Origin: Candidatus Woesearchaeota archaeon | GTDB lineage: Archaea > Nanobdellota > Nanobdellia > Woesearchaeales > UBA583 | Direction: 5' to 3' | Length of the DNA stretch: 64,000 nucleotides | NCBI GenBank assembly: GCA_023898345.1 | Contig: CP060218.1 | Location: 767,777 to 831,776 of the forward strand | Part shown: one piece after another, positions 1-61,307 of the stretch | Layout of the letters: each line of letters starts with the position of its first letter | How positions within the stretch are numbered: position 1 is the stretch's first letter | The notes under the pieces: model-generated | Told to the model about the DNA's origin: nothing | Databases searched by the model: none | What the model saw: only the letters and a program-made list of their open reading frames with translations | Made by a program: the position numbers and the translations under genes

Positions 1-905
1 CTAAAAATTTAATCGAATTATTAAAAATAGATTTAATTCGAAATTATGAAACTAGAGAGGAAAATAGTAATTTATTAAAAGGAAAACTATTAATGTCAAA
101 ACATTTAAGATATAATTTATTTAATAAAGCTAAATTCTATTCTCAGTTTGATGAGTTCACAGAAGATAATTCACTTAACAAAACATTTAAGTTAACTATT
201 GACAAATTACTCAAATTTACTCAAAATTCAAAAAATTTTAAATTACTAACAGAATGTAATTTAATCCTTCAAGATGTTACATTAAATAAGCTTTCAATTA
301 ATGATGTTGAAAAAGTTAAATTTACAAGATTAAATAAACAATATGAGAATATATTCAACTTAGCAAAATTATTATTATTTGAAAATTCCATAGATTTAAA
401 TTCTAAAGACACTAAAACATATTCATTAATGTTTGATATGAATAAATTATTTGAGGAATTTATTTTTGAATTTATAAGAAGAAATTTTCAATTTAGATTT
501 GAAAATATTCAATCAGAAAAACCTCAAAAATATTTATTTATAGATTCGCCTAAATTTATTTTAAAACCAGATATAACTATTAATTGTAATAAAGATAATT
601 GTGAATTAATAATTGATACTAAATACAAAAAAGTTAATGATATAAAATCTGACAAATATGGAGTTTCAAGAGAAGATGTCTATCAAATGTTTGTTTATTC
701 AAAAGTATATAACTGTAAAAATATAATCTTATTATATCCTAAATATGAAAAAGAGATAGAAAACGTAGTGTTTGAATCAGAATTTAATTTCAAACTTCAT
801 ATTAAAACTGTAGATTTACATATAGATTTAATAAAAGACAAAGAGAAATTAAAAAGAGAATTAAATACACTATTAAACATAATCCAAAATGACATTAAAC
901 AATAA
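1..905 (+). CDS. PD-(D/E)xK nuclease, McrC-like C-terminal region (5' partial; frame open to window start)
   Basis: ORF 93..905 has no in-frame stop upstream to position 3; motif PDITIN...ELIIDTKYK resembles the PD-(D/E)xK core of McrC-type subunits; 17-nt overlap with the downstream helicase gene. Confidence 0.4.
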   Translation, partial: KNLIELLKIDLIRNYETREENSNLLKGKLLMSKHLRYNLFNKAKFYSQFDEFTEDNSLNKTFKLTIDKLLKFTQNSKNFKLLTECNLILQDVTLNKLSINDVEKVKFTRLNKQYENIFNLAKLLLFENSIDLNSKDTKTYSLMFDMNKLFEEFIFEFIRRNFQFRFENIQSEKPQKYLFIDSPKFILKPDITINCNKDNCELIIDTKYKKVNDIKSDKYGVSREDVYQMFVYSKVYNCKNIILLYPKYEKEIENVVFESEFNFKLHIKTVDLHIDLIKDKEKLKRELNTLLNIIQNDIKQ

Positions 906-3900
906 CCAAAAAAAAGCAGTTGAAAAGATAAAAGGACCAACTATAGTTCTAGCTGGAGCAGGTACAGGTAAAACTTACACAATAGTAGAAAAAGTAAAGC
1001 ATCTTGTTGAATCAGGTGAATATAAACCTGAAGAAATTTTATGCCTAACCTTTTCAAATGAAGCTGCAAACTCTTTAAAAAATAAAATACAAGAAGGGTT
1101 GAAATCTTTTAAAGTGCCAACTGTTAGAACTTTTCATGGTTTTTGTTTAGATATTCTAAAAGAAGATTCAAACTTACTAAACATAGACAACGGTTTTGAT
1201 ATTCTTCTACCTGATGATGCTAAAGTATTAATGCACAGAGAATTAAACATCTCACCTTATTGGTCTAATAGATATGTATCAACTATATCAAATGCTAAAG
1301 ATTTTGGAATAGAAAAAGTAAAGATAGAAGAATACTTCTTAAAAATAAAGGAACACTTAGCACAAAACTATGATATAAACAATATCGACGAAATAGCAAA
1401 AGAGAAAGAGTTCGACCTAAATACAATTCATCTAGAACCAAATACTAAAGAGATAAGAGCATACAAAAAAGAGATCAAAGAGTTCTTAGAGTTATACAAA
1501 GAGTACGAATCATTTAAAGAGTTTCTTCAAGTCTGGGATGATTTTGAACAATTAAAAAAAGATAAAAACTTTTTAGACTATGGAGATCTAAATCATTTTG
1601 TTTTACATTTATTTAGAAAATTTGGAGCAGATAAGTATACAGATAGATATAAACATGTAATTATAGATGAATTTCAAGATACAAATAAAGTCCAATTTGA
1701 ATTAATAGAACATATTGCAATAGATCACAAAAACATAACAGTAGTAGGAGATCCAAATCAGAGTATTTATGGATTTAGAGGTTCATATAAAGAGAGCTTT
1801 AATCATTTCATGAAAACTTACAATGCAACTGAAAAAGATGAAGTTAAATTAGAAGAGTCCCACAGGTCTACAAATAGAATATTAAATATTGCTCATGATT
1901 TAATTAAAAATAATTATGAGAATCAAGAAGAATGTTTTAAGACATTTAATGCAGAAAAACACGAAGGAAAAAAAGTTAAAATAATTGAGTCTGTTAATAT
2001 GGCAGAAGAAGCAAGAGTAATTGCTGACATAGTTGAAGAAAAATTAAAACAAGGAACTATTGCAAAAGATATATGTATTTTATTTAGAACTCACCGGCAA
2101 GGAGATTACCTAAAAGAGTATTTAAGTTCAAGAAATATTCCTCTAGCTCAAGCAGGAAAGACTAATCTTCTAAACAAAAGAGAGATTAAAACTACTATTT
2201 GCTATCTCTCAATGTTAAACAATCTAGTAACAAGAACTGCAACAGGAGAGCAAGGTTTATGGTCTTTATTTCATTATAAAAACTTTCTTTCAATGGAAGA
2301 CTCATTAAAAATAGGAAGATATCTTAAGAAGAACAAAGACAAATCTATTGATGAAATATTAATGTTTGCAATTAAAGAGTTAGACTTAACTCAAAGTTCA
2401 ATTAAGATAATTAAAAATATTTTAAGTAAGATAAGAGAACTTCACAAGAGATCAAACTTGCCTCTTGAAGAGTTAGTTTTAGAGATATATGAAATTACAG
2501 GATTAAATAGAGCTTTCTCATATCAAAGAACTAATGAGAATGTTGAAGCTTTAATGAATCTTAAGAAATTTTATGATATTGCAAAATCTTTTAGAGAGTT
2601 TCATGGAGATAACTTAAACAACTTTATAGATTATTTAGAAGTATTAAGAGAACTAGGAGTATCAATTGATGCAAGTGAAATTAAAAATGATAATGCTGTA
2701 AGATTTATGACTATTCATGCATCAAAAGGTTTAGAGTTTGAGACTGTAATCGTCTCAAATTTAGCTGAGAAAAGATTTCCAGTATCAAGAACTCAAAATG
2801 AACCTCTAATTCCAAAAGAGTTACTTCCAGACTTAAAACTTTATTTAGAAAAAAAAGGAGAATTAACAGATAAAGAGAAAGAAGATGTAATTAAGAATTA
2901 CGAAAAAGAGATGCTTTTAATTGAGGAAAGAAGGCTCGCTTATGTTGCATTTACAAGAGCAAAAAATGAATTAATATTAACATTTGCAAGAAGTTATGAT
3001 AAAAATCCTGATTCAAATGAAGAGTCTATATTTTTACAAGAGATAGGTTATGATAATTGGAACTCATCTGAAGAGAAAATAGAAAATGAAAATTTAGAAT
3101 ATATTAAAGATGAACAAGAATTAAATACTTCAGTTGCACCAACTTCTCCAAAAGATAAATTATTAGATATTTTAAAGAAACAGATAGTTGAGAGTTTAGA
3201 TAGTGATGATATTAATACTATATTAGATAATATTTCGCAATATAGGACAGTTAAAGAAGAAAAAATAGTTAATCTAAACAAGATGTCAGAAAAAGATTTA
3301 AATAATCTAATTGAGAAGGCTAAGACTAATTTCTCTGGATTAAAATTTGACAAATCTATGATAACACTATCACCATCTGCTTTAATAGATTATAGCGAAT
3401 GTCCAAAAAAATTTGAATTATCAAGAATACTACAAATGCCTCAAAAAAATCAATTTTCTGATGATACTGATGCAGCATCTATTGGTTCATTTGTTCATCA
3501 AGTATTAGAAGATGGAGTAAATAATAAATTCAAATCTGAAAAAGAGTTCTTAGAACACTCTAAAGAGCTAATGAAAAAAGAAGAGTATGAAGGAATGCCT
3601 CAAGATGAAGTTGAGACAATGATTAAAGTATTCTGGCTCAGAAACAAAAATAAATACAATGATAAGTCGCAAACAGAGATTGGTCTATCTATGGAACTTG
3701 ATGGCTTTAAATACTTTGGACTAGCAGATAGAGTAGATGAATTAGAAGATGGAACACTTGAAATTGTAGATTACAAATCTAATAAATCAGCAGTTGATAC
3801 TAAAAAAAGAAATTATCAATTAGGTTACTATGCAATTGCATGTAGAGAATCTATGAAAAGAGAACCATCTAAATTAACTCTTGAAATGTTAAAGTTAGAT

Positions 3901-4113
3901 AAACCTTTAGAAATGTTTGTTGAAGGAAATATTGTAAAAGGTCCAGATGGTAGAACAAAGCCATTTAATCTTGATGAACTAAAAGAAGAATTTAAAATGT
4001 TAGCAAATAAAATTGCAAAAGATTTTGAAAGCGAGTTTAAAGTGAGTGATAATGAGAATGCCTGTAGGTTTTGCGGACTTAAATTTTATTGTCCAAAATA
4101 TAGTGAGGATTGA
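889..4113 (+). CDS. SF1 UvrD/Rep-type helicase fused to C-terminal RecB/Cas4-like PD-(D/E)xK nuclease with Cys cluster
   Basis: Walker A LAGAGTGKT, Walker B VIIDEFQD, C-terminal EIVDYKSNK, QLGYYAIAC and CRFCGLKFYCPKY motifs in the 1074-aa translation. Confidence 0.75.
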   Translation: MTLNNNQKKAVEKIKGPTIVLAGAGTGKTYTIVEKVKHLVESGEYKPEEILCLTFSNEAANSLKNKIQEGLKSFKVPTVRTFHGFCLDILKEDSNLLNIDNGFDILLPDDAKVLMHRELNISPYWSNRYVSTISNAKDFGIEKVKIEEYFLKIKEHLAQNYDINNIDEIAKEKEFDLNTIHLEPNTKEIRAYKKEIKEFLELYKEYESFKEFLQVWDDFEQLKKDKNFLDYGDLNHFVLHLFRKFGADKYTDRYKHVIIDEFQDTNKVQFELIEHIAIDHKNITVVGDPNQSIYGFRGSYKESFNHFMKTYNATEKDEVKLEESHRSTNRILNIAHDLIKNNYENQEECFKTFNAEKHEGKKVKIIESVNMAEEARVIADIVEEKLKQGTIAKDICILFRTHRQGDYLKEYLSSRNIPLAQAGKTNLLNKREIKTTICYLSMLNNLVTRTATGEQGLWSLFHYKNFLSMEDSLKIGRYLKKNKDKSIDEILMFAIKELDLTQSSIKIIKNILSKIRELHKRSNLPLEELVLEIYEITGLNRAFSYQRTNENVEALMNLKKFYDIAKSFREFHGDNLNNFIDYLEVLRELGVSIDASEIKNDNAVRFMTIHASKGLEFETVIVSNLAEKRFPVSRTQNEPLIPKELLPDLKLYLEKKGELTDKEKEDVIKNYEKEMLLIEERRLAYVAFTRAKNELILTFARSYDKNPDSNEESIFLQEIGYDNWNSSEEKIENENLEYIKDEQELNTSVAPTSPKDKLLDILKKQIVESLDSDDINTILDNISQYRTVKEEKIVNLNKMSEKDLNNLIEKAKTNFSGLKFDKSMITLSPSALIDYSECPKKFELSRILQMPQKNQFSDDTDAASIGSFVHQVLEDGVNNKFKSEKEFLEHSKELMKKEEYEGMPQDEVETMIKVFWLRNKNKYNDKSQTEIGLSMELDGFKYFGLADRVDELEDGTLEIVDYKSNKSAVDTKKRNYQLGYYAIACRESMKREPSKLTLEMLKLDKPLEMFVEGNIVKGPDGRTKPFNLDELKEEFKMLANKIAKDFESEFKVSDNENACRFCGLKFYCPKYSED

Positions 4114-4114
4114 A

Positions 4115-4519
4115 ATGGCATTTAAAGAAGAATTACATTTTATTTTTTTGGGAATCTCAACAATATTAACATCATTTTTATTAGATTATTTATTTAATTA
4201 TGCTGAGATTTATTCGAAAATAAATTCAATTATTGCATTAGTATTATTTGGTTTGTTCTTAATTTTTATGACTAAACTAGTTTTGTTTCCAATAACAGCT
4301 TATTTTAATAAATTATTTTTACCTAAAGGATATAAATCAAGAAAATATCTTGATATTAATAATGATTTTAATCTACCAAGCACATCTATTATTACAATAT
4401 TTATTATAGATAATGTTTCAAGTTTATATTCATTAGATTATATTTATTTAGTTATTTTAGTTATTCCTATATTTTTAATAATTCATTATCTAAATGAAAA
4501 TTTCGAGATATATAGTTAA
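4115..4519 (+). CDS. Small integral membrane protein, hypothetical
   Basis: ATG at 4115 directly after helicase stop; multiple hydrophobic helices in translation. Confidence 0.4.
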   Translation: MAFKEELHFIFLGISTILTSFLLDYLFNYAEIYSKINSIIALVLFGLFLIFMTKLVLFPITAYFNKLFLPKGYKSRKYLDINNDFNLPSTSIITIFIIDNVSSLYSLDYIYLVILVIPIFLIIHYLNENFEIYS

Positions 4520-4578
4520 TCATGTTCATATTGATAAATGAACTCTAAAAAAATTATAGATGGTATGTAAAATAAAAT

Positions 4579-4761
4579 TCAAAACTCCAACAAATAAAAA
4601 CCTAAAGCACTTTTACCAATAATTGTGCATTCTAAAAATTTCTTTTTTAGTAAGTTTGGATTTATTCCCTTAGCAGAAACTCTAAAAGTCTCATATTTGT
4701 CATTTAAGAGGAATTTTCCTCTCTTCTCAGATTCAAATTCCATATATTTTGTCGTTTTCAT
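4579..4761 (-). CDS. Hypothetical small protein (60 aa)
   Basis: ORF only; position between membrane protein and integrase. Confidence 0.2.
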   Translation of the reverse strand: MKTTKYMEFESEKRGKFLLNDKYETFRVSAKGINPNLLKKKFLECTIIGKSALGFYLLEF

Positions 4762-4897
4762 AATATTCTAAAATTTGGTTATTTTTAACACTTTGCAAAG
4801 ACTATTAACTTCAATTTAAGCGATTTACACTCAAAATAATGAGAGAAATATTTCAAAACAAGTCTTAGTCTTAAAATGTCAAAAAAGTCTTCAAATA

Positions 4898-5809
4898 TCA
4901 ATGTCTAATCACCTCCAACACTTTTTCATATTCTTTTACTGCAATCTCTTTTTTATTTAAATAATGAGTCATCCCAACATTTTTTGAAGTTGACCTTCCA
5001 GATATGAAGTTTGCTATTTCAATTGCAACTCCTGCTTTAACCATTAAAGTAAATGAATACTTTCTTAGATACTTTAAATGAACTATTTTCTTATTATCTT
5101 GGGTATGATCTACAAATCTATTGAAGTATGTTTTATCAAATTTACCAATATGTTCTTTTAATTCATTATATAATTCTAATGTAAAGAATAGATAATAAGA
5201 TGATTTCTGACCTCTTAAATAGAAATTATTGTAAGTAACTATGCCGTTTTCATGTATTTCTATGTTCTTTTCATCAAAATTTTCAAAGAAATGTTTAACT
5301 TCTGTTGTCCTAGCTGTTGTTTCAATATAGAATCTATATAATAAATAATGTAATCTATCATATTTAGATACTTCTTTTACAGAGTTTTTAATCTCCAAAC
5401 ATGTAGGAATATAAGTATCAATATGAACTTCATTGTGAATTTTAATTCTTCTTCGGATGTTTTCAATTATATCTAAGTCTAATATATCAAACTCTTCTAA
5501 GTAATTCAGCCATACTCTAATTGCAACTCCTCCTTGTCTTTTGTTAATTTTTTCAAGAGCAATAGCATTTTTAATCTCTTCAATGGTATTAACACTAATC
5601 TCTTCAAACAATTTAGTTAGACAATTAAAAACAGATACTGCGTAAGTTCTTGTGAACTTTTTTAAAGTATATACTTTATATTCATTTTTTGTCTTAAAGT
5701 ATATACTTTTTAATTCTATAAAATTTTGATTTTTTGGCGTAAAATTTTCTAAATTTTGAGAAATTTGCTGTTGATTAGAAATTTGTGAGGAGGCGTATTT
5801 GCCCCCTAG
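4898..5809 (-). CDS. Tyrosine recombinase / integrase (N-terminus uncertain)
   Basis: C-terminal HLKYLRKYSFT...GRS...GMTHY resembles the H-x-x-R ... Y catalytic region of tyrosine recombinases; track ORF runs on to 5980 through the tRNA, which is unlikely to be coding; no in-frame ATG after the tRNA, first TTG is much further in. Confidence 0.55.
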   Translation of the reverse strand, partial: LGGKYASSQISNQQQISQNLENFTPKNQNFIELKSIYFKTKNEYKVYTLKKFTRTYAVSVFNCLTKLFEEISVNTIEEIKNAIALEKINKRQGGVAIRVWLNYLEEFDILDLDIIENIRRRIKIHNEVHIDTYIPTCLEIKNSVKEVSKYDRLHYLLYRFYIETTARTTEVKHFFENFDEKNIEIHENGIVTYNNFYLRGQKSSYYLFFTLELYNELKEHIGKFDKTYFNRFVDHTQDNKKIVHLKYLRKYSFTLMVKAGVAIEIANFISGRSTSKNVGMTHYLNKKEIAVKEYEKVLEVIRH

Positions 5810-5812
5810 AGA

Positions 5813-5894
5813 CGCCAAGACTGGGATTTGAACCCAGAATTCCGAAGGAACTACATTAGCAGTGTAGCGCAATACCGAGTTATGCGATCTTGGC
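5813..5894 (-). tRNA. tRNA-Ser (anticodon GCU)
   Basis: Manual fold of minus strand: acceptor GCCAAGA/TCTTGGC, anticodon stem CTACA/TGTAG, loop CTGCTAA, long variable arm TTCC..GGAA, T-arm CTGGG-TTCAAAT-CCCAG, discriminator G. Confidence 0.8.
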
Positions 5895-5923
5895 ATTAGG
5901 TCTCTTTTTTTAGTCGCCGCCGG

Positions 5924-5958
5924 ATTAGCAGTGCTGCGCAATACCGAGTTATGCGACC
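5924..5958 (-). repeat. Partial duplicate of tRNA-Ser 5' half (32/35 identical to 5855-5889)
   Basis: Direct repeat attagcagtg(ct/ta)gcgcaataccgagttatgcga(c/t)c about 30 bp 5' of the tRNA on the same strand. Confidence 0.6.
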
Positions 5959-6041
5959 TCAGCTCGATGAAGATAAACAAGTAAACTTGCTATCAAAAAG
6001 TGATAAGCCAAATCTCTTTTAAAAGATTTTGCTTCTTCCCT

Positions 6042-11870: not shown

Positions 11871-11891
11871 TTCCTTCAGTTGCACTTGAAC

Positions 11892-13175
11892 ATGGAAAAC
11901 AAACTCCCCGTTACACTCTTAAGTGGCTTTTTAGGCTCAGGAAAAACAACACTCCTCAATCACATTCTCCACAACAGAGGAAATCTAAAAGTTGCCGTCA
12001 TTGTAAACGACATGTCAGAAGTAAACATCGATGCAAACTTGATTAAAAATGGCGACGCCAAACTTTCGCGGACAGAGGAAAAACTCGTCCAAATGGAAAA
12101 TGGTTGTATCTGTTGTACACTGCGAGAAGACCTTCTAGTAGAAATAAAAAAACTTGCTGAAGAAAAAAAATTTGATTATCTTGTTATCGAAAGTACTGGC
12201 ATAGCAGAACCCCTTCCCGTAGCAGAGACCTTCACCTTTGCCAACGAAAAAGGAAACTCCCTCTCCGACTTTGCGCGCCTCGACACCATTGTAACCGTCG
12301 TTGATGCCTTTAATTTCTTCAATGATTTTTATTCAAAAGAATCTCTCAATGAAAGAGGAGAAAGTTTAGGAGAAGAAGACGAAAGAACCATTGTGAATCT
12401 GCTTGTCGATCAAATTGAATTTTCAAACGTAATCATTCTCAATAAGATTGAAAAGTTACAAGAAGAAGAAAAAAAGAAAATTAAAGCAATTATCAGAAAT
12501 CTCAACAGAGACGCCAAAATACTCGAGACCTCCTACTCAAAAGTAGATTTGAAAGAAATCATACATACAAAGCTCTTTGATTTTGAAAAAGCAGCTCAGG
12601 CTCCTGGATGGCTAAAAGAATTACGAGGAGAACACACTCCAGAAACAGAAGAATACGGAATTTCTTCCTTTGTGTACAGAGCGCGAAAACCTTTTCACCC
12701 AGAAAGATTAAAGGCCCTTTTTTCTGCTAAACTTTTTTCAGGAATTATCAGAGCGAAAGGATATTTCTGGATTGCTACAAGAAACAACATTGCTTTAACT
12801 TTGGCGGTTGCCGGAAAAATTCTAGAGTACAGCGTTGCAGGTTTCTGGTATGGGACAATGCCAAAAAAAGAAATTCAAAAAGACAAGGAACTTTGGGACT
12901 ATCTAAAAACAGTCTGGGAAGAACCATTTGGCGACAGACGACAAGAACTTGTGTTCATTGGAACTGACTATAATAAAGAAGAAATTATGAAAGAACTCGA
13001 CAAAGCACTTTTAACAGACGAAGAAATGAAAGTATCTCCTCAAGAATGGAACACCACCTTTACAGACCCCTTTCCAAAATGGGACATCCCAGAAGAAAGT
13101 GAAGAAGAAGCAGAGAAAAGATTTCAAGAAGAATTGGAAGCTATTCAAGAAGAAAAAGAAAAAATCTTAGGATAA
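11892..13175 (+). CDS. CobW/COG0523-family GTPase, putative zinc metallochaperone
   Basis: [10 protein letters not shown]-loop, CICCTL motif, CobW-like C-terminal domain; ATG 11892 preferred over track TTG 11880. Confidence 0.8.
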
Positions 13176-13177
13176 AA

Positions 13178-14191
13178 ATGTCTTCTTCACCTTTTCCAGA
13201 TACAAGAATCCCTCTTATAATTGTAACAGGATTCCTAGGTTCAGGAAAAACAAGCTTTGTCAACCACATTCTAGCATCACTTACAAACAAAAAAGTTGTC
13301 GTTATAGAAAATGAATTTGCAGAATTAGGTATTGATTCTCGTATTATCAAAAAAAGTAAAGACTCAAAAATTTTTGAACTAAACAATGGCTGTATTTGCT
13401 GTTCTATGAATGGAGAATTGGAAGGCGTTTTTGCCGAGATAGTAAAAAACAAAGAACACTGGGATTATGTCATCATAGAGACGACAGGCGTTGCAGACCC
13501 TTCTCCCATAATCAGCAATTTCTTTTCAAATCCTTTGCTCTGTGAAGAATTTAGACTAGACTGCATGTACACACTTGTCGACTGCAAAAACTTTTTCAAA
13601 CAAATCCAACGAGAATACGAAACAAAAAAACAAATTGCCTTTGCGAACAAAATACTCCTTAACAAAATAGACCTTGTTGAAGAAGAGGAAAAAGAAAAAA
13701 TAAAAAAAGAAATCTCAAAACTCAATCCAGATTCACAGATAAGCGAAACAACACACGCCAAAATTCCACTTCAACACATTTTTGAAGAATCTGCCTTCGA
13801 TATTTCAGATCTTAAAAAGATAAAGAATTCTTTCCAATCCTTTAGTTTTTCTCCCTCTCTTGCACCCTCAGTTCTGACAAAGCCAGTACAAAGTCACGAC
13901 ATACAGTCATTTGGCATTTCCAGTGAAGGCGAAATACTTCTCCCAGAATTTGACTTTTTCATAAGAACACTCATAGAGCTCAAAAGAAATGACTTGTACA
14001 GAACAAAAGGCATCGTCAATCTCAAAGGAGCAAATCAGCCCCTTATTTTTCAAGGAATTCATGATGCCATAGAATGGTTTCCCGGTCCACCATGGGGAGA
14101 AGATGAAAAGAGAGAAACAAAAATGATTTTTATTGGAAAAAATTTGGATAAGCAGGACATTGAAACTGCATTTAAGAAAATTCTTCACTAA
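13178..14191 (+). CDS. CobW/COG0523-family GTPase, second paralog
   Basis: [10 protein letters not shown]-loop and GCICCSM motif. Confidence 0.8.
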   Translation: MSSSPFPDTRIPLIIVTGFLGSGKTSFVNHILASLTNKKVVVIENEFAELGIDSRIIKKSKDSKIFELNNGCICCSMNGELEGVFAEIVKNKEHWDYVIIETTGVADPSPIISNFFSNPLLCEEFRLDCMYTLVDCKNFFKQIQREYETKKQIAFANKILLNKIDLVEEEEKEKIKKEISKLNPDSQISETTHAKIPLQHIFEESAFDISDLKKIKNSFQSFSFSPSLAPSVLTKPVQSHDIQSFGISSEGEILLPEFDFFIRTLIELKRNDLYRTKGIVNLKGANQPLIFQGIHDAIEWFPGPPWGEDEKRETKMIFIGKNLDKQDIETAFKKILH

Positions 14192-14206
14192 AAGTTTTAT
14201 CTCCTG

Positions 14207-14240
14207 CTATTGATAATAAGACTCAATAATATTTATAAAA
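14207..14240 (+). promoter_or_regulatory. Candidate Zur operator (cTATTGA-N9-TCAATAA) plus TATA box for the znuABC operon
   Basis: Identical to the motif at 11838-11871; ATG at 14261. Confidence 0.5.
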
Positions 14241-14260
14241 TAAAATACAAATCTTAGAAT

Positions 14261-15235
14261 ATGAAAAAAAGTCTCGTTTTCATTATGCTCCTTATCGGAG
14301 TTCTTCTTGCATCATGTAGCAGTACAAACACAAGCCAACAAAGTACAAAGCTAGCTGATGAAAACTCTCTCTCTGAAAAACCGACAATCGTAACAACCTT
14401 TTATCCCGTCGAAGAAATTTCCAAAGCTATTCTTGGCGACACAGCAAATGTCGAAGTTCTTGTCGGCTCTGGCGTCGAACCGCATTCGTACGAACCAACT
14501 CCGACACAAATCATAGAACTTTCCAAAGCAGATTCCTTTGTCACCATGGACGGAATGTTTGAACACATTGAAGAAGCAATTATAGAAGCAAACCCAAGTA
14601 TCAAAGTAATTCCGGCAACTCAAAATCTCCCTCTTTTGAAAAATGAAGAAGAGGATGAACACGATCACGAAGATGAAGAACATGACGAGCACGAAGAAGA
14701 AGAGCACGAGCATGATCACGGGGAATACGACCCGCATGTTTGGCTTTCTATTGAGAACATGAAAACGATGACACAAGACGTTCTCGACCAACTTATTGTT
14801 TTGTACCCCGAACACAAGGACATGTACGAAGCAAACGCCAAAGCCTACGAAGAACAACTCGACGAACTTGAAACCCAATACACACAAACACTCAGCAATT
14901 GTTCACAAAACATCATCATCGTCAATCACAAAGCCTTTGCCTACCTTGGACACGAATACGGATTTGAACAAATTTCCGTTGCAGGATTCACGCCAGAATC
15001 AGAACCAAGTCCAAAAGCAATACAAAATGTCGTAGACGAAGCAAAAGAACACTCCCTCAAATATGTATTTTCAGAAGGACAAATAGACCCAAAAACAGCA
15101 CAAACAATTGCCGATGATATAGGAGGAGAAGTACTTGAACTTTACCCTATCAAAATGAACGAAAACCAAAACTACTTTTCCATCATGAGAACAAACTTAG
15201 AAAAACTAGCAATAGGACTAGAATGTTCAAATTAG
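14261..15235 (+). CDS. znuA: Zinc ABC transporter substrate-binding lipoprotein (ZnuA-like) with His/Asp/Glu-rich loop
   Basis: Signal/lipobox-like LLASCSS, acidic His-rich loop EEEDEHDHEDEEHDEHEEEEHEHDH, cluster I substrate-binding fold. Confidence 0.8.
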   Translation: MKKSLVFIMLLIGVLLASCSSTNTSQQSTKLADENSLSEKPTIVTTFYPVEEISKAILGDTANVEVLVGSGVEPHSYEPTPTQIIELSKADSFVTMDGMFEHIEEAIIEANPSIKVIPATQNLPLLKNEEEDEHDHEDEEHDEHEEEEHEHDHGEYDPHVWLSIENMKTMTQDVLDQLIVLYPEHKDMYEANAKAYEEQLDELETQYTQTLSNCSQNIIIVNHKAFAYLGHEYGFEQISVAGFTPESEPSPKAIQNVVDEAKEHSLKYVFSEGQIDPKTAQTIADDIGGEVLELYPIKMNENQNYFSIMRTNLEKLAIGLECSN

Positions 15236-15268
15236 TTTTTTAAATAGAAAAGGAAAAGGAAATCTAAG

Positions 15269-15967
15269 ATGCAAGAACCAATAATTGAAATTAAAGATTT
15301 AACATATTCTTATCACCAAGAACAAAACATACTCGAAAACATCTCTCTTTCCATACACAAAGGTGACTTAGTTGCCATTATCGGTCACAACGGCTCCGGA
15401 AAATCAACACTCGTCAAACTTATAGCAGGCTTGCTCGAACAAAAAACAGAAAGCATAACACTACGAGGAAAACTCTCCTACATTCCACAAAAAGTCAGTT
15501 CAGACAACAACTTCCCCGCCAAAGTAAAGGAAATCCTTGACCTCGAATGCTGTGATTGCAAACTACGTGACGAAGTCCTCAAAAATTTAGGAATAGACGA
15601 GTTTGTCGAAAAACAATTCAAAGTTCTCTCTGGCGGCCAACAACAAAGAGTCCTTATTGCACTTGCACTCCTTTCAAATCCAGACATCCTCATTCTCGAC
15701 GAACCGACAGTTGGCGTGGATACAAAAACCCAAGAAGACTTTTACAAATTGCTCAAAAAACTCCACAAAGAAAGAGAACTCACTATCCTCTTTGTCACAC
15801 ACGACACAGGAATGATCTCTGATTACTTCACAAAAATAATTTGCCTAGACAATAAAAAAGCGCACATGGACGAAGCAAAAAACACAGACAAAGTTCTCCA
15901 CTCTGGTTACGGAGAGCACTTCCACGAAGTCCATCATCACCACCACAAAACAAAGGAGAGCAACTAA
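15269..15967 (+). CDS. znuC: Zinc ABC transporter ATPase (ZnuC-like) with His-rich C-terminal tail
   Basis: Walker A GHNGSGKST, signature LSGGQQQR, Walker B ILILDEP, tail HFHEVHHHHHK. Confidence 0.8.
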   Translation: MQEPIIEIKDLTYSYHQEQNILENISLSIHKGDLVAIIGHNGSGKSTLVKLIAGLLEQKTESITLRGKLSYIPQKVSSDNNFPAKVKEILDLECCDCKLRDEVLKNLGIDEFVEKQFKVLSGGQQQRVLIALALLSNPDILILDEPTVGVDTKTQEDFYKLLKKLHKERELTILFVTHDTGMISDYFTKIICLDNKKAHMDEAKNTDKVLHSGYGEHFHEVHHHHHKTKESN

Positions 15968-15968
15968 G

Positions 15969-16766
15969 ATGTTTGAAATACTAAGTTACGAGTTTATGCA
16001 AAGAGCACTTTTGGGAGGAATAATTATTAGTACAGCAAGTGCGCTCATAGGAGTTTTTCTTGTCCTCAAACGACTTTCACTTTTGGGAGATTCACTCGCA
16101 CACGCTTCCTTTGGCGGCATTGCACTCGGCTTTGTCACAGGCTGGAACCCCCTTCTCACAGCACTCGCCTTTGTCACGCTAGCATCACTTGGCATCGACA
16201 GACTTGTGAACAAACTTAAAGTGTACGGAGAAAGTGCAATTGCTCTCATGCTCTCCTTTGGAATGGCACTCGCACTCCTACTCATAGGAATTGCAAAGAA
16301 AATGGACTACAATATCTTCTCCTATCTTTTTGGTTCTATCCTCACGATAAACTCCTTTGACATTGCACTCGCAGCGACAGTCTTAGCTCTCATTCTCATC
16401 TTTTACTTTTTCAACTACAAAATTCTCCTTTATTCAGCCTTCAATCAAGACATAGCGCTCGTACGAAACAAAAGAACAAAACTCATTGACAAACTCTTCA
16501 TCATGCTCAGTGCAGTAACCATAGTCATTTCCATAAGAGCCGTCGGAATCCTTCTTATCTCAGCACTTCTTGTCATTCCAGCACTCATTGGACTGCGCCT
16601 TTCAAAGTCTTTCAAATCCACAATTTTCATCGCCATACTCAGCTCTATCTGTGGCGTTCTTTTGGGAATCTTTCTTGCCTACTACTTTGATCTGCCTGCT
16701 GGAGGAACCATTGTCATGAGTCTGCTCTTTCTCTTTGTCCTGAGCCTTTTCTTTGGGAGAAAGTAA
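15969..16766 (+). CDS. znuB: Zinc/manganese ABC transporter permease (ZnuB-like)
   Basis: Polytopic membrane protein immediately downstream of the ATPase; 1-nt gap. Confidence 0.75.
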   Translation: MFEILSYEFMQRALLGGIIISTASALIGVFLVLKRLSLLGDSLAHASFGGIALGFVTGWNPLLTALAFVTLASLGIDRLVNKLKVYGESAIALMLSFGMALALLLIGIAKKMDYNIFSYLFGSILTINSFDIALAATVLALILIFYFFNYKILLYSAFNQDIALVRNKRTKLIDKLFIMLSAVTIVISIRAVGILLISALLVIPALIGLRLSKSFKSTIFIAILSSICGVLLGIFLAYYFDLPAGGTIVMSLLFLFVLSLFFGRK

Positions 16767-16804: not shown

Positions 16805-18001
16805 ATGGGAGTGTACGAAGCTGAAGACGACAGCAAACTTCTTCTGAACTGCGCAAAGGAATATCTTACTAAAACAAACAAAGAAGAGCAACTCGACATT
16901 CTTGAGATTGGCGTCGGCTCAGGATTTGTACTTTCAGAACTAGCAAAAGAATTTCCACTGCACAAGTATTTTGGATCAGATATTAACAAGGACGCGCTGC
17001 AAAGTACAAAGCAGCTTTTTCAAAAGAACAAACAGAAAGTCACACTTAAACAATCAAATCTCTTTGAGAAATGGAAAAAAAACAAGTTTGACCTTATTCT
17101 TTTCAACACGCCATATCTTCCCCTTGAAGATGAAGAGAACTTTGAAGAGTTAAGCATGGAAGACAAAGCACTGTACGGAGGCAAAGAAGGAAATGAAGTG
17201 ACTCTTGACTTTCTCAAAGCCTTACCTTCACACCTCAAAGAAAAAGGAAAAACACTCATCATTACTTCAAGTCTAGCAAAACCCGAGCGCATAGAACAAA
17301 GAGCAAAAGAACTTCTCCTTGAAACAAAAATAATCAAAACAAGCCCATCATTTTTTGAAGAAATACTCTGCATAGACATCAAAAAAACATACCTTCTAGA
17401 AAAGCTCAGTAAAGAAAAAATAACAGAAATAGACTATTTTTCAAAAGGAAAAAAATCACAAGTGTACAAAGGAAAATTCCACAAAAAAGACATCATCATA
17501 AAATTAGGAAAAGAAGACGATTTGCAAGTGGAAAAAATCTTTCTCAAAAAACTTGAACATACAAAGTTCACGCCAAAACTCATAGGAAAACAATATTCCG
17601 GTGCAATTCTCATGAGCTACGTCAAAGGAGAAAATATTGAGCAATTTCTAAAAAACAACACAAACAAAAAAGAAATCTCTCAGATTCTTAATTCCTGCCT
17701 TGCACACTGCTACACTTTGGACTCACTCAAGATAACAAAAAAAGAAATGACAAACCCATACAAACACATCATCATCGACGACAAAGCAAATGTAACATTC
17801 ATCGACTTTGAGCGCGCCTTGTACAACGACAATCCCAAAAACACGCGCCAGTTCTTGCAGTACCTTTGTCGGCAAAGTAAGAATTTACAAAAAAAAGGAA
17901 TCGTTCTCGACACAGACAAGATACGAGAACAAGCAAAAGCACACAAAGAAAAACCACAAAAAATCAGACTCCAAACATTTCTTGAAAATAAAATCACCTG
18001 A
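16805..18001 (+). CDS. Fusion protein: N-terminal HemK/Mtq2-like SAM methyltransferase and C-terminal Bud32/RIO-like small kinase domain
   Basis: GVYEAEDDS and FNTPYLP (NPPY-like) motifs N-terminally; kinase-like IIIKLG, HIIIDDKAN and IDFERA C-terminally. Confidence 0.5.
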   Translation: MGVYEAEDDSKLLLNCAKEYLTKTNKEEQLDILEIGVGSGFVLSELAKEFPLHKYFGSDINKDALQSTKQLFQKNKQKVTLKQSNLFEKWKKNKFDLILFNTPYLPLEDEENFEELSMEDKALYGGKEGNEVTLDFLKALPSHLKEKGKTLIITSSLAKPERIEQRAKELLLETKIIKTSPSFFEEILCIDIKKTYLLEKLSKEKITEIDYFSKGKKSQVYKGKFHKKDIIIKLGKEDDLQVEKIFLKKLEHTKFTPKLIGKQYSGAILMSYVKGENIEQFLKNNTNKKEISQILNSCLAHCYTLDSLKITKKEMTNPYKHIIIDDKANVTFIDFERALYNDNPKNTRQFLQYLCRQSKNLQKKGIVLDTDKIREQAKAHKEKPQKIRLQTFLENKIT

Positions 18002-25536: not shown

Positions 25537-27621
25537 TTATTCATCAGGAACACAAAGCCAATGATATGTGTATGTATCTGTTGAAGGCGTTCCCGTTTCA
25601 CAATTTCCTCCTCCATGACCAACTGCTTCTGATTTAATCATTGCTTTAAAGTATCTTCCTTGACTATAATATCCTGTTCCAGGAGCTGGTTCTGCAGTAT
25701 ACCCAGCCTTACAATTATATGTCGTATCAAGAGAAGGAGAAACACAAGTTAGTGACTTTGGCTGTGCTTCTTTCTCCTCAGCAGTACAAGTATAGCCACA
25801 AGCACAGCAGCCCCAAAGTTGTTTATAATCTTTTGAATAAGTTACACCATAATTACACTTTGACCTTCCATCTTCACAACCCGCACTAGTGTCGCAATAT
25901 CCTGCAACCTCAGTTGTGGCTTCCCCACACGTATCTTTGTAGTAAAGATTATTGTTGGAGCAAATCTTATCAGAAGTTTTTGTACATTCCTCTGGATCGG
26001 GTTCTAGAATTGGTATGCCGCTATCATCACCGACACCAACACATCCCTCCGGTACAGGTTTACCAGCACAAGCGGTCCCCGTCATATCAAGTTCCCACTC
26101 ATTTTCTCCAACATCTTTTATACAAAGAGACTCATCCAACTCCCCATAAGGTTCCATACACTCTTCCCAATAAGAATCGTCTTCAGTACTCGCAGAACAT
26201 TCATCTGGGACATCCTCTATTGCTAAACAGTAAGAATTGTCTACAAATCTACCTGAAGTTGTAGTTGCACTTTTATTTATACAATAAGGAGTATAATCAG
26301 GAGCAGCACACATCCAGTAAAAGTCAGGGTCATCCTCAATTGCAGAACTGCCACAAACACTCTCGACGGAAGGCTTGGAGCTAGGATTACAAAATTTATC
26401 TTCTCCTAAACGCCCCGTTCCTTTTTCTAAGCAGGCAACTGACTTCCCATCCTCAGCGCAACCCCATTGAAAATCTTGGTGTTCAGTACAAAAACCTTTT
26501 GAAAGAGTTTCACAAAAAGTGTCAGAAACTATCTTGTTATTTTCATCAAGACAAAAATAAGAGGGTGTATTCCCAGAATTAGAATAAGCACACACCCATC
26601 TTACAGAAGTATGACACGCTCCAGCAGCATTAGAACTTTTACGATCCCCATAGACATCAATACATTTTTGTCTATCAATCTCAGATTGTGTCTTCTTATC
26701 AACACATTTGTATGTCGTTGAAAGAGTTCCTCCATTACAGAATTGATTTTTCTTCCATTCGAATGTGATTTCTTCTCCTGCAGAGAAGTCTGTAAAATGA
26801 AGAACATAAGCGCTTGCAATGTTATTTACTTTGTCAACAGTTGTTTCAAGAGAAACCCATTCCCCGTTTTCATAGTATTTTATAACGAGATTATCTTCAT
26901 CAACAACTTCAGCATCAGAATATTTGAAAGATAGCTTTGCTCCGGGAGCCGCAAATTGAGTTCCATCCGGACCAAAGTCATAAACTTCTCCTACAAACAA
27001 AAAATCTCCACCATTTGGAGCTGGTGAACGAGTCACACTTAAGGAAGCAGAAGTCTGACCATTCGGAAAGGTAATTTCTGTTCCTGCTGGAATTTCCAAA
27101 CTAGCATCTGCATGCTCTACAATTTGGACATTCTCAGAATTGGACACAACTGCTCGTGAGGTGTAATCTAAAACTTCAGGACTTAAATATGCCCCTTGCC
27201 CTGCAAATTGATTAAATGTGTCCGTACAACTAATGTTAACTGCGCCATCATCTAATTTGAGAATTTGACAATTATAGCCACCATCAGCCCCTTCACCATT
27301 TTGTAAAATAATTTCATTCGAACTGACTTCACAATCAAATCTTCGACACCCTAAAACTTCTTCTCCCTGTCGCAGACAAAGCTCTTCTTTGTCGTTATTG
27401 TAAATTTCATACTCTGCATTAATTTTTGAAATTTCTAGATTGTAGCTTTGCAAATTTGCAGAGATATCGCAAGTATAGGTAACAAGCTCTTCCATTGCTG
27501 CGAATGCGGCATTCAAATCTTTTTTCTCAAAATCAACTGAAGCATTCTGAAAAGTAAGAATGACGACAACGAGAATCAACAAGATTGCAACAAGACCTGT
27601 AACATTTGATGTTATATTCAT
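25537..27621 (-). CDS. Cysteine-rich secreted/surface protein with N-terminal signal anchor
   Basis: N-terminal hydrophobic segment then a long Cys-rich ectodomain with many paired Cys. Confidence 0.45.
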   Translation of the reverse strand: MNITSNVTGLVAILLILVVVILTFQNASVDFEKKDLNAAFAAMEELVTYTCDISANLQSYNLEISKINAEYEIYNNDKEELCLRQGEEVLGCRRFDCEVSSNEIILQNGEGADGGYNCQILKLDDGAVNISCTDTFNQFAGQGAYLSPEVLDYTSRAVVSNSENVQIVEHADASLEIPAGTEITFPNGQTSASLSVTRSPAPNGGDFLFVGEVYDFGPDGTQFAAPGAKLSFKYSDAEVVDEDNLVIKYYENGEWVSLETTVDKVNNIASAYVLHFTDFSAGEEITFEWKKNQFCNGGTLSTTYKCVDKKTQSEIDRQKCIDVYGDRKSSNAAGACHTSVRWVCAYSNSGNTPSYFCLDENNKIVSDTFCETLSKGFCTEHQDFQWGCAEDGKSVACLEKGTGRLGEDKFCNPSSKPSVESVCGSSAIEDDPDFYWMCAAPDYTPYCINKSATTTSGRFVDNSYCLAIEDVPDECSASTEDDSYWEECMEPYGELDESLCIKDVGENEWELDMTGTACAGKPVPEGCVGVGDDSGIPILEPDPEECTKTSDKICSNNNLYYKDTCGEATTEVAGYCDTSAGCEDGRSKCNYGVTYSKDYKQLWGCCACGYTCTAEEKEAQPKSLTCVSPSLDTTYNCKAGYTAEPAPGTGYYSQGRYFKAMIKSEAVGHGGGNCETGTPSTDTYTYHWLCVPDE

Positions 27622-41586: not shown

Positions 41587-41678
41587 TTTGTTGTTTGGAT
41601 CTTTTTTGCTTTAAGTTGTTTTTTCTCTACCTCACAGTCCCAACAAAAACACATAAGAGTAAGTCTTTCAAAAAAACT

Positions 41679-44261
41679 ATGTTAAAAATAGAGAAGATAA
41701 GCCCCAGCGTCAAACTTATTTCGGCTCTCGACCCAAACCTCCAAGTCTTTGACATCATCATGCATACAAAGTGTGGAAGTACATACAATTCCTACATCAT
41801 CGACGGAGGAGACGAACTTGCCCTCATTGACAGCGCCAAAGAACAGTACATTGATGAATACTTCAAAGAACTCGAGGCAATGTGCGACATAAGAAAAATA
41901 AAATATCTTATCGCGAATCACACAGAGCCAGATCACAGCGGAGAAATGGAAAAACTGCTCTCCTACATGCCATGGCTCACCATTGTCGGCACAGCAACAG
42001 CAATCTCCTTCCTCAAAGACATCACAAACAAAGACTTTACAAGTATAGAAGTAAAAGAAAACACCAGTTTGAAAGTCGGCAACAAAACACTTTCTTTTTT
42101 CATTGTCCCCTACCTTCATTGGCCAGATTCCATGTTCACATATCTTGAAGAGGAAAATCTTCTTTTTACTTGCGACGTGTTCGGAGCTCACTACCACACA
42201 ACGCAAGTCTACGACGACAAAGTAGAAAGCCAAGCTGACTATGACGAAGCATTTCGTTACTACTACGATTGTATTTTTGCTCCTTTCAAATCCTATGTTC
42301 TCAAAGCATTAAAACAACTGCACAACAAGAGTTTTGCTCTTCTTTGTCCTTCGCACGGCCCCATCATTCGCAAAAACAAAGATCTTGTACGTTCCCTCTA
42401 TTACGAGTGGTCTGTTGAAGAAGAACTTGATTTGAACTCCTGCGCCATTGTGTACACCTCCGCTTACGGTTACACAAAAGAAATGGCAGTTCTGCTTTCT
42501 GAGGAAATGCAAAAAAAAGGTTTTCGTACAAGTCTCTTTGATTTAGTTAGTGATTCCATGGAAGAGGCCATTCAAAAAACCCATAGTTCTGGCGCGCTTC
42601 TTGTAGGAAGCCCAACCATAAATTGCGATCTTGTGGAACCCATTCAAGAATTTTTACAAAAACTAAGTCCTTACAAGTGCGCGACAAAGTTAACGGGAGC
42701 CTTTGGAAGTTATGGCTGGAGTGGAGAAGCTGTTTCCATCATGGAAGCAAGACTTGCACAACTGAAAAGCGAAGTGTATCGTCCGGGCATTAAAATAAAA
42801 TTCAATCCAAACTCTCCCGATAAAGAAGCACTTGTACGAACTTATGGCGAACGCTTTGCAGAAAAACTTCATTCTTTTAACAAGCTTGCAAAAAAAGCAC
42901 AATGGACACAGTTCACTGTTGGGAAATGGCGCTGCTTAGTTTGTTCAGAAATTTTTGAGGGAGACCAACCTCCCCAAGTTTGTCCTGCCTGTGGAGCTCC
43001 ACAAGATCAGTTCATAAAAATTGAAAGTACGCAACACCAGTTTATCTCGGAGAAAGAAGAACACTTAGTTATCATCGGGGCTGGAATTGCAGGAATAAGT
43101 GCAGCACAAGGTGCCAGAAAAACAAATCCAAAAGCTCACATCACCATTATTAGTGAAGAAGAGGAAGAACCATATTACAGAATTTTACTTTCCAAAAAAA
43201 TTGGGGAGGCACTTGACGCACCACTGCAAAAAAAAGAATGGTTTGAAAAAAATAATATCTCTCTAATCCTAGGAAGAAAAGCAGAAAAAATAGATATAAA
43301 CACAAAAATAATAACACTCAACGACAAAGAAGAGCTTCCTTACACAAAGCTAATTTTGGCGATGGGCGCAGGAGCAAATTGCATTTTGCCACAGGGAAAA
43401 AATATCGACAATGTTTTTACTCTGCGAAATAAAAAAGATTTTGACAGTATTAATAAAGCACTAACAGAGAACACAGACAAACATGCTGTTGTTATCGGAG
43501 GGGGAATCCTCGGAGTCGAAATGGCACTTGGTCTTAAAAAACAAAATTATTCTGTCTGTATTGTCGAACTAGCGCCAAGACTTATGACTAGACAACTTGA
43601 TGAAACTGCTTCTCAACTTTTAGAAAAAAATCTCCGTGAACAACAAATTGAAATATTCACATCAGAGAAAATAAAACTCTTTCATACAGATGCGCAAAAC
43701 AAGCTTTGTTCTGTAGAACTGGAAAGTGGAAAGGTTCTGACGTGTTCGCTTGCAATAGAATCTTTGGGAGTTTGTCCGAACACTTTGCTTGCGATCGATG
43801 CCGGCATCACAGTACAAAGAGGAATTGTCGTTGATGAAAGAATGCAGACAAGTAAAGAAGATATTTTTGCATGCGGTGACATTGCCCAAATAAACGGAGT
43901 TTGTGTTGGATTGTGGGGCGTAGCACTTGAACAAGGCAAAGTTGCAGGGGCTTGCGCAATGGGCGATGAGAACGCTTTTTACCACCAAAAAATACTTGCA
44001 ACAACGGTTAACATTAATGGCTACCATATTTTTTCTCTTGGCGATCTGGGACAAAAATATCCTTCCTTAGAATACCAAACTCTTTCTCTAAGCGATCCGC
44101 AAAAAAAAGTTTATCGAAAGTTTTACTTCAGGGAGGACCAGTTTGTCGGCGGCATTCTTATGGGCGAGACATCCAAAGCGACGCAGCTACACATTGCACT
44201 CGAACGTAGCTCCACTATGCAAAGCTTTCTGGACGCGCATTTTCTGAACGAGAGCGAGTGA
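41679..44261 (+). CDS. Flavodiiron protein fused to rubredoxin and NAD(P)H:rubredoxin oxidoreductase domains (class F-like)
   Basis: Metallo-beta-lactamase-like HxExDH region, flavodoxin-like middle, rubredoxin CxxC...CPACG, FAD/NAD folds IIGAGIAG and VVIGGGILG; ATG 41679 preferred. Confidence 0.75.
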   Translation: MLKIEKISPSVKLISALDPNLQVFDIIMHTKCGSTYNSYIIDGGDELALIDSAKEQYIDEYFKELEAMCDIRKIKYLIANHTEPDHSGEMEKLLSYMPWLTIVGTATAISFLKDITNKDFTSIEVKENTSLKVGNKTLSFFIVPYLHWPDSMFTYLEEENLLFTCDVFGAHYHTTQVYDDKVESQADYDEAFRYYYDCIFAPFKSYVLKALKQLHNKSFALLCPSHGPIIRKNKDLVRSLYYEWSVEEELDLNSCAIVYTSAYGYTKEMAVLLSEEMQKKGFRTSLFDLVSDSMEEAIQKTHSSGALLVGSPTINCDLVEPIQEFLQKLSPYKCATKLTGAFGSYGWSGEAVSIMEARLAQLKSEVYRPGIKIKFNPNSPDKEALVRTYGERFAEKLHSFNKLAKKAQWTQFTVGKWRCLVCSEIFEGDQPPQVCPACGAPQDQFIKIESTQHQFISEKEEHLVIIGAGIAGISAAQGARKTNPKAHITIISEEEEEPYYRILLSKKIGEALDAPLQKKEWFEKNNISLILGRKAEKIDINTKIITLNDKEELPYTKLILAMGAGANCILPQGKNIDNVFTLRNKKDFDSINKALTENTDKHAVVIGGGILGVEMALGLKKQNYSVCIVELAPRLMTRQLDETASQLLEKNLREQQIEIFTSEKIKLFHTDAQNKLCSVELESGKVLTCSLAIESLGVCPNTLLAIDAGITVQRGIVVDERMQTSKEDIFACGDIAQINGVCVGLWGVALEQGKVAGACAMGDENAFYHQKILATTVNINGYHIFSLGDLGQKYPSLEYQTLSLSDPQKKVYRKFYFREDQFVGGILMGETSKATQLHIALERSSTMQSFLDAHFLNESE

Positions 44262-52898: not shown

Positions 52899-52972
52899 GC
52901 GCCTATAGTTTAGCTTGGATAGAACGGTCGGTTGCGGTCCGGCTGGCAGGGGTTCAAATCCTCTTGGGCGCG
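52899..52972 (+). tRNA. tRNA-Arg (anticodon GCG)
   Basis: Manual fold: acceptor GCGCCTA/TGGGCGC, D-arm GTTT..GAAC, anticodon stem GTCGG/CCGGC with loop TTGCGGT, T-arm AGGGG-TTCAAAT-CCTCT. Confidence 0.8.
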
Positions 52973-61303: not shown

Positions 61304-61307
61304 TTTT

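Follow-up and report, generated by a model that had tools for sequence, protein, structure and literature searches.

RNA 2'-phosphorylation of the ArkI type was discovered in 2022 and has been seen mainly as a means of stabilizing tRNA in thermophiles. Ohira et al. (2022) described ArkI as a kinase of the AQ578/COG2112 family that adds a 2'-phosphate to U47 of tRNA (PMC9095486), and the modified nucleotide, Up47, has since been found in mesophiles too (PMC10159004). The known ArkI proteins, for example that of Thermococcus kodakarensis (TkArkI; TK2051, PDB entry 7vnx) and Geoglobus acetivorans Ark1 (8yv4 and 8yv5), are standalone minimal kinases of about 200 amino acids (aa) with a protein-kinase-like fold. 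Other ArkI proteins validated by experiment come from S. tokodaii, M. fervens, N. viennensis, N. profundicola, Leptolyngbya and A. aeolicus. A second family, Mtq2/HemK2/N6AMT1/KMT9, N5-methylates the glutamine of the GGQ motif in the release factors eRF1 and aRF1 and works with Trm112, a small zinc protein which Mtq2 requires in eukaryotes and in some archaea. Here we describe an open reading frame (ORF) of 398 codons in which relatives of these two enzymes are joined in one protein. It lies in a stretch of 64,000 nucleotides (the window) from a Candidatus Woesearchaeota archaeon (contig CP060218.1, positions 767,777 to 831,776; Table 1). Both domain families are already known, while the architecture and the gene linkage are new; no description of an Mtq2-ArkI fusion, or of ArkI in DPANN archaea, was found in the accessible literature that we searched.

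The ORF is uninterrupted from its ATG to its TAA stop and begins 38 bp past a znuB-like gene on the same strand. The exact protein is present in NCBI (MCA9487001.1, MCB9370436.1 and USN43514.1, from Candidatus Woesearchaeota or Nanoarchaeota archaeon) under the name "methyltransferase"; since the kinase domain is invisible to Pfam and NCBIfam, proteins of this kind are annotated as nothing more than that. The identical ORF with unchanged neighbors was recovered on at least eight contigs from different assemblies and different sequencing runs or samples, one of them a contig of 1.54 Mb, and a frameshift or a chimeric assembly is therefore rejected as its origin. A search with the full protein returned approximately 88 full-length homologs of 380-420 aa with 30-46% identity spanning both halves, and those carrying a name are metagenome-assembled genomes (MAGs) of Nanoarchaeota or Woesearchaeota. 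AlphaFold modeled the full-length protein with a mean predicted local distance difference test (pLDDT) of 92.8 and a predicted template-modeling score (pTM) of 0.85, and no linker separates the two domains in this model.

A preliminary description of this DNA, made from the sequence letters alone, had called the N-terminal half an Mtq2/HemK-like methyltransferase, and that assignment is borne out. The NCBIfam model TIGR00537 ("HemK2/MTQ2 family protein methyltransferase") matches aa 3-192 with 114.5 bits, above its curated cutoff of 87, and 30 of 32 aligned family members match it at E<=1e-24. Pfam assigns aa 24-156 to small-methyltransferase families, among them PF05175 (MTS) at 48 bits. When the whole-protein model was compared with known structures by Foldseek, the best folds were human HemK2/N6AMT1/KMT9 (template-modeling (TM) score on the target 0.87, 28% identity) and Encephalitozoon cuniculi Mtq2 (0.90), with identity to this family ranging from 22 to 28% over the shared Rossmann core; the RNA methyltransferases METTL5, TrmM and RsmC were more distant, with target TM scores of 0.66 at most. 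The SAM (S-adenosylmethionine)-binding motif I and an N-x-P-Y form of motif IV are both present. Position 102 of motif IV varies among T, P and A across the family, so that the NPPY of Mtq2/HemK2 is replaced by NTPY in the window protein and in most fused members; the covalently attached kinase domain is the other departure from Mtq2/HemK2. The N-terminal domain thus belongs to the HemK2/MTQ2 methyltransferase family. In one related locus (L026, 67-1371) an Mtq2-like methyltransferase carries an extremely K/R/E-rich C-terminal tail of about 230 aa, and the kinase is there a separate downstream gene.

The C-terminal half had been described as a Bud32/RIO-like minimal kinase. The minimal kinase fold is confirmed by Foldseek, but the family is a different one. 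No Pfam or NCBIfam model recognizes this domain, the best being PK_Tyr_Ser-Thr (E=0.015) and Bud32 (E=0.016). A profile built from 25 C-terminal domains and matched against the PDB gave a full-domain match to 8yv4/8yv5, titled "G. acetivorans RNA kinase Ark1" (E=3e-28), and a match to residues 22-201 of TkArkI (E=1.7e-14), with canonical protein kinases and RIO2 trailing behind (E>=2e-4, and E=2e-3 for RIO2). A model of the C-terminal domain alone (pLDDT 95.2) placed the 8yv5, 7vnx and 8yv4 entries at Foldseek ranks 1 to 4 with target TM scores of 0.68-0.76. The next-nearest folds were human PRPK (Bud32; rank 5, 10-12% identity) and RIO1, whose E values of about 1e-7 are some 1000-fold weaker. 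Bud32/PRPK, a member of KEOPS, and the RIO kinases resemble the domain in being minimal, atypical protein-kinase-like folds with no activation segment; their targets belong to the translation apparatus, as those of this domain would. However, with the Bud32 family model NF011461 the window protein reaches 15 bits where the cutoff is 372, and it does not match the RIO domain PF01163, for which weak matches (best E=2e-5) were found in four of 25 relatives, and it carries ArkI-type motifs instead. We conclude that the C-terminal domain is a member of the ArkI/AQ578/COG2112 kinase family rather than of Bud32 or RIO.

Table 1. Features of the methyltransferase-kinase fusion gene (window coordinates; residue numbers are those of the 398-aa protein unless marked ArkI) and related loci with an MGMT module
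Feature	Position	Strand	Basis or conservation
Whole ORF, Mtq2/HemK2-type methyltransferase + ArkI-type kinase fusion	16805..18001	+	ORF, homologs, model, identical public copies
N-terminal domain, aa 1-195, class I SAM-dependent methyltransferase, HemK2/MTQ2 family	16805..17389	+	TIGR00537, PF05175, Foldseek
Motif I, SAM-binding loop ILEIGVGSG, aa 32-40	16898..16924	+	G36, G38, S39 and G40 invariant, n=32 family members
Motif IV FNTPYLP, aa 100-106, N-x-P-Y variant of the NPPY substrate-amide/amine pocket	17102..17122	+	F100, N101, P103, Y104 and P106 invariant
C-terminal domain, aa 196-398, minimal eukaryotic-protein-kinase-like kinase, ArkI/AQ578/COG2112 family	17390..17998	+	Profile against PDB, C-domain model, Foldseek
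Glycine-loop region FSKGKKSQ, aa 212-219; G215 = ArkI G33	17438..17461	+	G in 80/81
Beta-3 strand IIIKL with ATP-anchoring K233 (= ArkI K51)	17492..17506	+	K in 78/81
AlphaC Glu, E243	17531-17533	+	E in 81/81
Catalytic loop ITKKEMTNPYKHI, aa 310-322; K312 and E314 replace ArkI H130 and Q132; K320 and H321 = ArkI K137 and H138	17732..17770	+	Each 81/81
Metal-binding loop IDFER, aa 333-337, ArkI-type DFE in place of DFG	17801..17815	+	D334 and E336 in 81/81
Subdomain IX segment PKNTRQ, aa 344-349; N346 = ArkI N160; R348 at the T162 position	17834..17851	+	N in 81/81
Segment KAHKEK, aa 378-383; H380-K381-E382 = counterpart of the ArkI YKR RNA-binding motif	17936..17953	+	Alignment
Kinase + MGMT fusions: L034, L049, L052, L069, L080			
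Methyltransferase + kinase + MGMT triple fusions: L046, L061, L065			
Separate downstream MGMT gene: L026, L033, L037, L050, L077, L082			

The active site was compared across an alignment of 81 DPANN sequences, fused and unfused, for which the TkArkI numbering was taken from PMC9095486 and checked against a 95%-identical Thermococcus sequence. The family shares with ArkI the glycine loop, the beta-3 lysine, the alphaC glutamate, the K-H pair of the catalytic loop, the DFE triplet that has been described for TkArkI (PMC9095486), the subdomain IX asparagine and, in most members, a C-terminal Y-K motif. Counterparts of ArkI K137, H138, D149, E151 and N160 are each found in all 81 sequences, the Y200 position is Y in 73 and the K201 position is K or R in 71. 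The residues whose mutation cut or abolished TkArkI activity (K137, D149, N160 and K201; PMC9095486) therefore all have conserved counterparts in the DPANN family. At the T162 position 74 of the 81 have T or S, and the window protein alone has R. Two catalytic-loop substitutions relative to TkArkI, H130 to K and Q132 to E, are systematic, and the same K..E variant occurs in G. acetivorans Ark1, so the HGQ triplet marks the Thermococcus type rather than everything deposited as Ark1. The window kinase also has an additional catalytic-loop residue, is only 22-27% identical to the solved ArkI structures, and comes from a mesophile-type DPANN lineage rather than from a thermophile. The catalytic residues are invariant in fused and unfused members alike, which favors an active enzyme over a scaffold.

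The gene arrangement was surveyed in 80 loci from GTDB species representatives, all of them DPANN-like, using a separate hidden Markov model for each domain. The two domains were fused in 31 loci and encoded by adjacent genes in 12, seven loci had one gene between them, and in the remaining 30 no methyltransferase lay within the sequence available. In the 12 adjacent pairs the methyltransferase gene was always upstream and on the same strand as the kinase gene, with a gap of -60 to +116 nucleotides (nt), the overlaps measuring 3-60 nt, and mostly with overlapping stop and start codons, and these split versions are probably translationally coupled. Gene order and strand of the pair were constant. 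The genes intervening in the seven loci were mutually unrelated (one coding for a membrane protein, several others for secreted or unknown products), and no conserved third partner was found among them. An exhaustive profile search of 1.84 billion cluster representatives gave 1642 matches at E<=1e-3 and 421 at E<=1e-30. The best 150 representatives (clusters at 50% identity) comprised 93 of the fused type, 44 standalone kinases, six standalone kinases with a C-terminal extension and seven fragments. A search with the C-domain profile also brought up many standalone proteins, 190-210 aa long, from the lineages that carry the fusions. One DPANN subclade, Geoglobus and Thermococcus have the kinase in standalone form, a sign of its autonomy.

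A Neighbor Joining tree of the kinase domains, produced without support values, places the window protein inside a large clade made up entirely of fused forms. Fused forms also occupy the deepest DPANN branches, most of the kinases that stand alone fall into a single derived clade, and the DPANN sequences as a whole have the Archaeoglobi Ark1 type as their sister group. Neither of the two loci examined outside DPANN, that of Geoglobus Ark1 and that of a Thermococcus ArkI, has an Mtq2 gene beside the kinase, and thus the linkage is specific to the DPANN lineage and old within it. We regard as established which folds and families the two domains belong to, that both have conserved active sites, and that the fusion is genuine and has been maintained in evolution. 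The preliminary description had also failed to recognize this as a standard architecture, which agrees with the literature searched insofar as the fusion is undescribed, but it is no one-off: it is the dominant form of this kinase subfamily in Woesearchaeota and Nanoarchaeota. There is, moreover, a precedent for a methyltransferase-kinase fusion in WbdD, the chain terminator of the Escherichia coli O9a O-antigen. In that polysaccharide-capping protein an N-terminal methyltransferase and a C-terminal kinase fold are likewise found in one chain; the kinase adds a phosphate group to a sugar, and that group is then methylated by the methyltransferase. Foldseek aligned about 400 columns of WbdD across both domains, but with 12-13% identity, a root-mean-square deviation of 9-10 A and a TM score of about 0.4. 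The domains are arranged otherwise, the WbdD methyltransferase is of another subfamily that lacks the NxPY amine/amide pocket, and the fusion described here has no coiled-coil ruler. WbdD is therefore an architectural analog and not a member of the same family.

Several features of the surveyed loci were observed in passing. A conserved same-strand gene of about 155 aa lies just upstream of the methyltransferase or fusion gene in 18 loci (for example L032 1291-1779, L023 1204-1689 and L065 5012-5482); it belongs to no Pfam family, and the PDB search gave only a weak match to a "CAP repeat" (E=7e-5). Standalone kinases ("alone" loci in L019-L086, and L001-L005) lie in a conserved context, with a secreted or membrane-anchored protein of about 606 aa without a Pfam match, divergently upstream in 23 loci, and a BatA/VWA - DUF58 - MoxR AAA cluster downstream on the opposite strand. 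None of these recurrent neighbors (the 155-aa gene, the 606-aa protein and the BatA/VWA/DUF58/MoxR genes) explains the function. The topoisomerase VI subunit B gene in loci L003-L005 (1-1742), from a marine DPANN lineage, contains an intein that encodes a LAGLIDADG endonuclease and splits the gene. Among the representative MAGs of GTDB with the DPANN-type gene, many (L008, L009, L011, L015, L018, L021, L066 and others) bear the title "uncultured Methanosarcinales", "Bdellovibrionales bacterium" or "Alphaproteobacteria bacterium", and these are probably mislabeled or contaminated bins.

A third module recurs next to the kinase. Fourteen of the 80 loci have, after the kinase, a domain of O6-alkylguanine-DNA alkyltransferase (MGMT, PF01035; E=1e-18 to 3e-28), and most of these domains contain the PCHR active-site motif. 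It is fused to the kinase C-terminus in eight loci, including three triple fusions, and is a separate same-strand gene in the other six (Table 1). MGMT is thus a further partner, one acting on nucleic acids, with which the kinase is recurrently associated.

Taken together, these data point, with a probability that we place a little above even, to a bifunctional enzyme in which a release-factor methyltransferase and an RNA kinase, both competent for catalysis, act on the translation machinery as one complex, the substrates and the coupling being judged from homology and gene linkage. Given its membership in the Mtq2/HemK2 family, the methyltransferase domain would most likely N5-methylate aRF1, the archaeal release factor, at its GGQ glutamine. 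Homology to TkArkI and G. acetivorans Ark1 suggests that the kinase domain would use ATP to phosphorylate a ribose 2'-OH in RNA, U47 of tRNA being the target of the characterized ArkI enzymes. The linker-free domains are predicted to pack as one rigid unit. Because the same two proteins are encoded by overlapping, probably translationally coupled genes in sister genomes, the split-gene proteins would probably also act as a complex, and the fusion would be a hard-wired version of this partnership in Woesearchaeota and Nanoarchaeota.

Several observations weigh against this proposal of a paired release-factor methyltransferase and RNA kinase. The HGQ triplet of ArkI is absent and K-x-E stands in its place in every member (K312-K-E314 in the window protein); a glutamate at the position of the protein-kinase catalytic aspartate restores a carboxylate, and the specificity could therefore differ from that of ArkI. 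The window protein further departs from ArkI at two RNA-related positions, T162 (R348) and Y200 (H380), and has E382 at the position of R202. The RNA-kinase label of Geoglobus Ark1 is a PDB title alone, and our searches for a functional or structural paper behind it found nothing. The characterized ArkI genes are unlinked to Mtq2, so they offer no precedent from which to read what the linkage means, and if the genome holds a second, standalone Mtq2, the fused methyltransferase may have another substrate. As for tRNA, neither class-I tRNA in the window has U47, tRNA-Lys having C47, and over the window and about 90 related loci U47 was present in one of four scorable class-I tRNAs, a sample that is far too small. 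We also observed that the variable loop of the window's tRNA-Arg(GCG) (52899-52972) is only 3-4 nt long, which is unusually short and leaves this tRNA without a position 47, and that a related tRNA-Arg(GCG) in locus L055 is the same in this respect.

The alternatives differ mainly in what each domain is taken to act upon. It is unlikely, in our estimation, that both domains act on the same RNA, with the ArkI-like domain binding and phosphorylating tRNA or another structured RNA and the NxPY methyltransferase methylating an exocyclic amine there, in the manner of N2-methylguanosine (m2G) or N6-methyladenosine (m6A) enzymes. NPPY-type methyltransferases do include RNA m2G and m6A enzymes, the weaker matches of the N-terminal domain are to RsmC, TrmM and METTL5, fusion and operon linkage usually signify a common pathway or substrate, the nucleic-acid-binding MGMT lies in the same string of genes in 14 of 80 loci, and the fused domains of WbdD act sequentially on a single substrate. 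The N-terminal domain is, however, far nearer to Mtq2/HemK2 than to any RNA methyltransferase (target TM 0.87-0.90 against 0.66 at most) and carries neither THUMP, PUA nor another accessory domain for RNA binding. We think it rather unlikely that the C-terminal domain is instead a Bud32/RIO-like protein kinase, or an ATPase, which phosphorylates or regulates a protein such as aRF1, a ribosomal protein or the methyltransferase itself. ArkI matches with E values of 1e-14 to 1e-28, RIO2 with 2e-3 or worse, and the Bud32 model falls far below its cutoff; the DFE specific to ArkI is conserved, as are subdomain IX of the N160 type and, in most family members, the C-terminal Y-K motif, and the closest solved relative, which has the same K..E variant, was deposited as an RNA kinase. 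These observations have to be set against the ranking of PRPK/Bud32 and RIO1 as the next-best folds after ArkI, the presence of Glu314 where protein kinases have their catalytic aspartate and ArkI has glutamine, the weak RIO1 Pfam matches in four of 25 members, and the fact that the expected substrate of the partner domain is itself a protein.

That the kinase-like domain serves chiefly as a structural activator of the methyltransferase, standing in for Trm112 with catalysis secondary or lost, strikes us as quite improbable, since catalytic residues invariant in 81 sequences are not expected of a scaffold and 30 of 80 genomes, as well as other archaeal orders, have the kinase with no methyltransferase gene beside it. 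The lack of a linker and the high pTM do suggest a rigid two-domain body, and the split forms have overlapping genes. Neither the window nor some 90 related loci yielded a Trm112-like ORF, but this was a crude regular-expression scan of low sensitivity that covered a small part of each genome. An artifact in which a frameshift joins two genes, or a meaningless fusion produced by genome compaction, is least credible of all and highly improbable. Split, overlapping versions do exist in related genomes and DPANN genomes are compact, yet the ORF is identical on at least eight contigs, fusions account for 31 of the 80 loci from species representatives and for 93 of the 150 best cluster representatives, fused forms are found on the deepest branches and throughout a large kinase clade, and order and strand are constant.

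It is interesting to speculate further, although we hold it to be unlikely, that the Mtq2-like and ArkI-like modules, with MGMT in some lineages, form a dedicated machine working on one tRNA-shaped substrate. In one version the kinase would dock a tRNA and the NxPY methyltransferase would add a novel amine methylation beside the 2'-phosphate, giving a compound tRNA modification specific to DPANN archaea. In the other version the ArkI-like domain would recognize aRF1, which mimics tRNA, and would present its GGQ loop to the methyltransferase, thereby replacing Trm112. If either were true, RNA phosphorylation would be mechanistically coupled to release-factor or tRNA methylation, and the range of ArkI-type RNA phosphorylation would take in a huge clade of uncultivated mesophilic archaea.

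The fusion gene is immediately preceded, on its own strand, by a zinc-uptake operon (ZnuA, ZnuC, ZnuB) that follows two tandem genes for CobW/ZigA-type GTPases (window 11880-16766), an arrangement which recurs in other assemblies of the same organism (L091-L094). The neighbors in the window, including the zinc-uptake operon, EamA and malic enzyme, were searched for a clue to function and gave none. Elsewhere in the window, an 888-aa ORF (41595-44261, + strand) combines a flavodiiron-type metallo-beta-lactamase (ODP), a flavodoxin, a rubredoxin-like domain and a flavoprotein of the NAD(P)H:rubredoxin-reductase type, which together would make up an entire O2/NO-reducing electron chain within a single protein. 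An 856-aa ORF (59963-62533, - strand) matches the reverse transcriptase family RVT_1 (E=2e-23) in its first 280 residues or so, with no Pfam match in the remaining 575 or so; it could be a group II intron reverse transcriptase or one of the defense type. Four very large ORFs are without a Pfam match: 44370-49607, 49700-51994 and 53058-56849 on the + strand (1745, 764 and 1263 aa) and 25537-27621 on the - strand (694 aa). The G+C content is low at 44-48 kb (0.30-0.32, compared with about 0.37-0.39 nearby) and markedly low over positions 1-6000 (0.24-0.28), a region which holds a gene for an AddA-like UvrD helicase/PD-(D/E)XK nuclease (889-4113), ends near tRNA-Ser(GCT) (5811-5895) and may be an island.

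These results overturn no established view and do not define a new class of system; they provide a lead for the study of archaeal tRNA modification and translation termination. The clade of ArkI-related kinases in Woesearchaeota and Nanoarchaeota is very large, as the 421 cluster representatives at E<=1e-30 attest, and most of its kinases are either joined to an Mtq2-type methyltransferase in one protein or probably coupled with one in translation. The fusion is thus a testable "Rosetta stone" link between two translation-related modification systems whose connection was not previously known, and it bears on what may replace Trm112 in reduced genomes and on possible internal RNA phosphorylation in mesophilic DPANN archaea.

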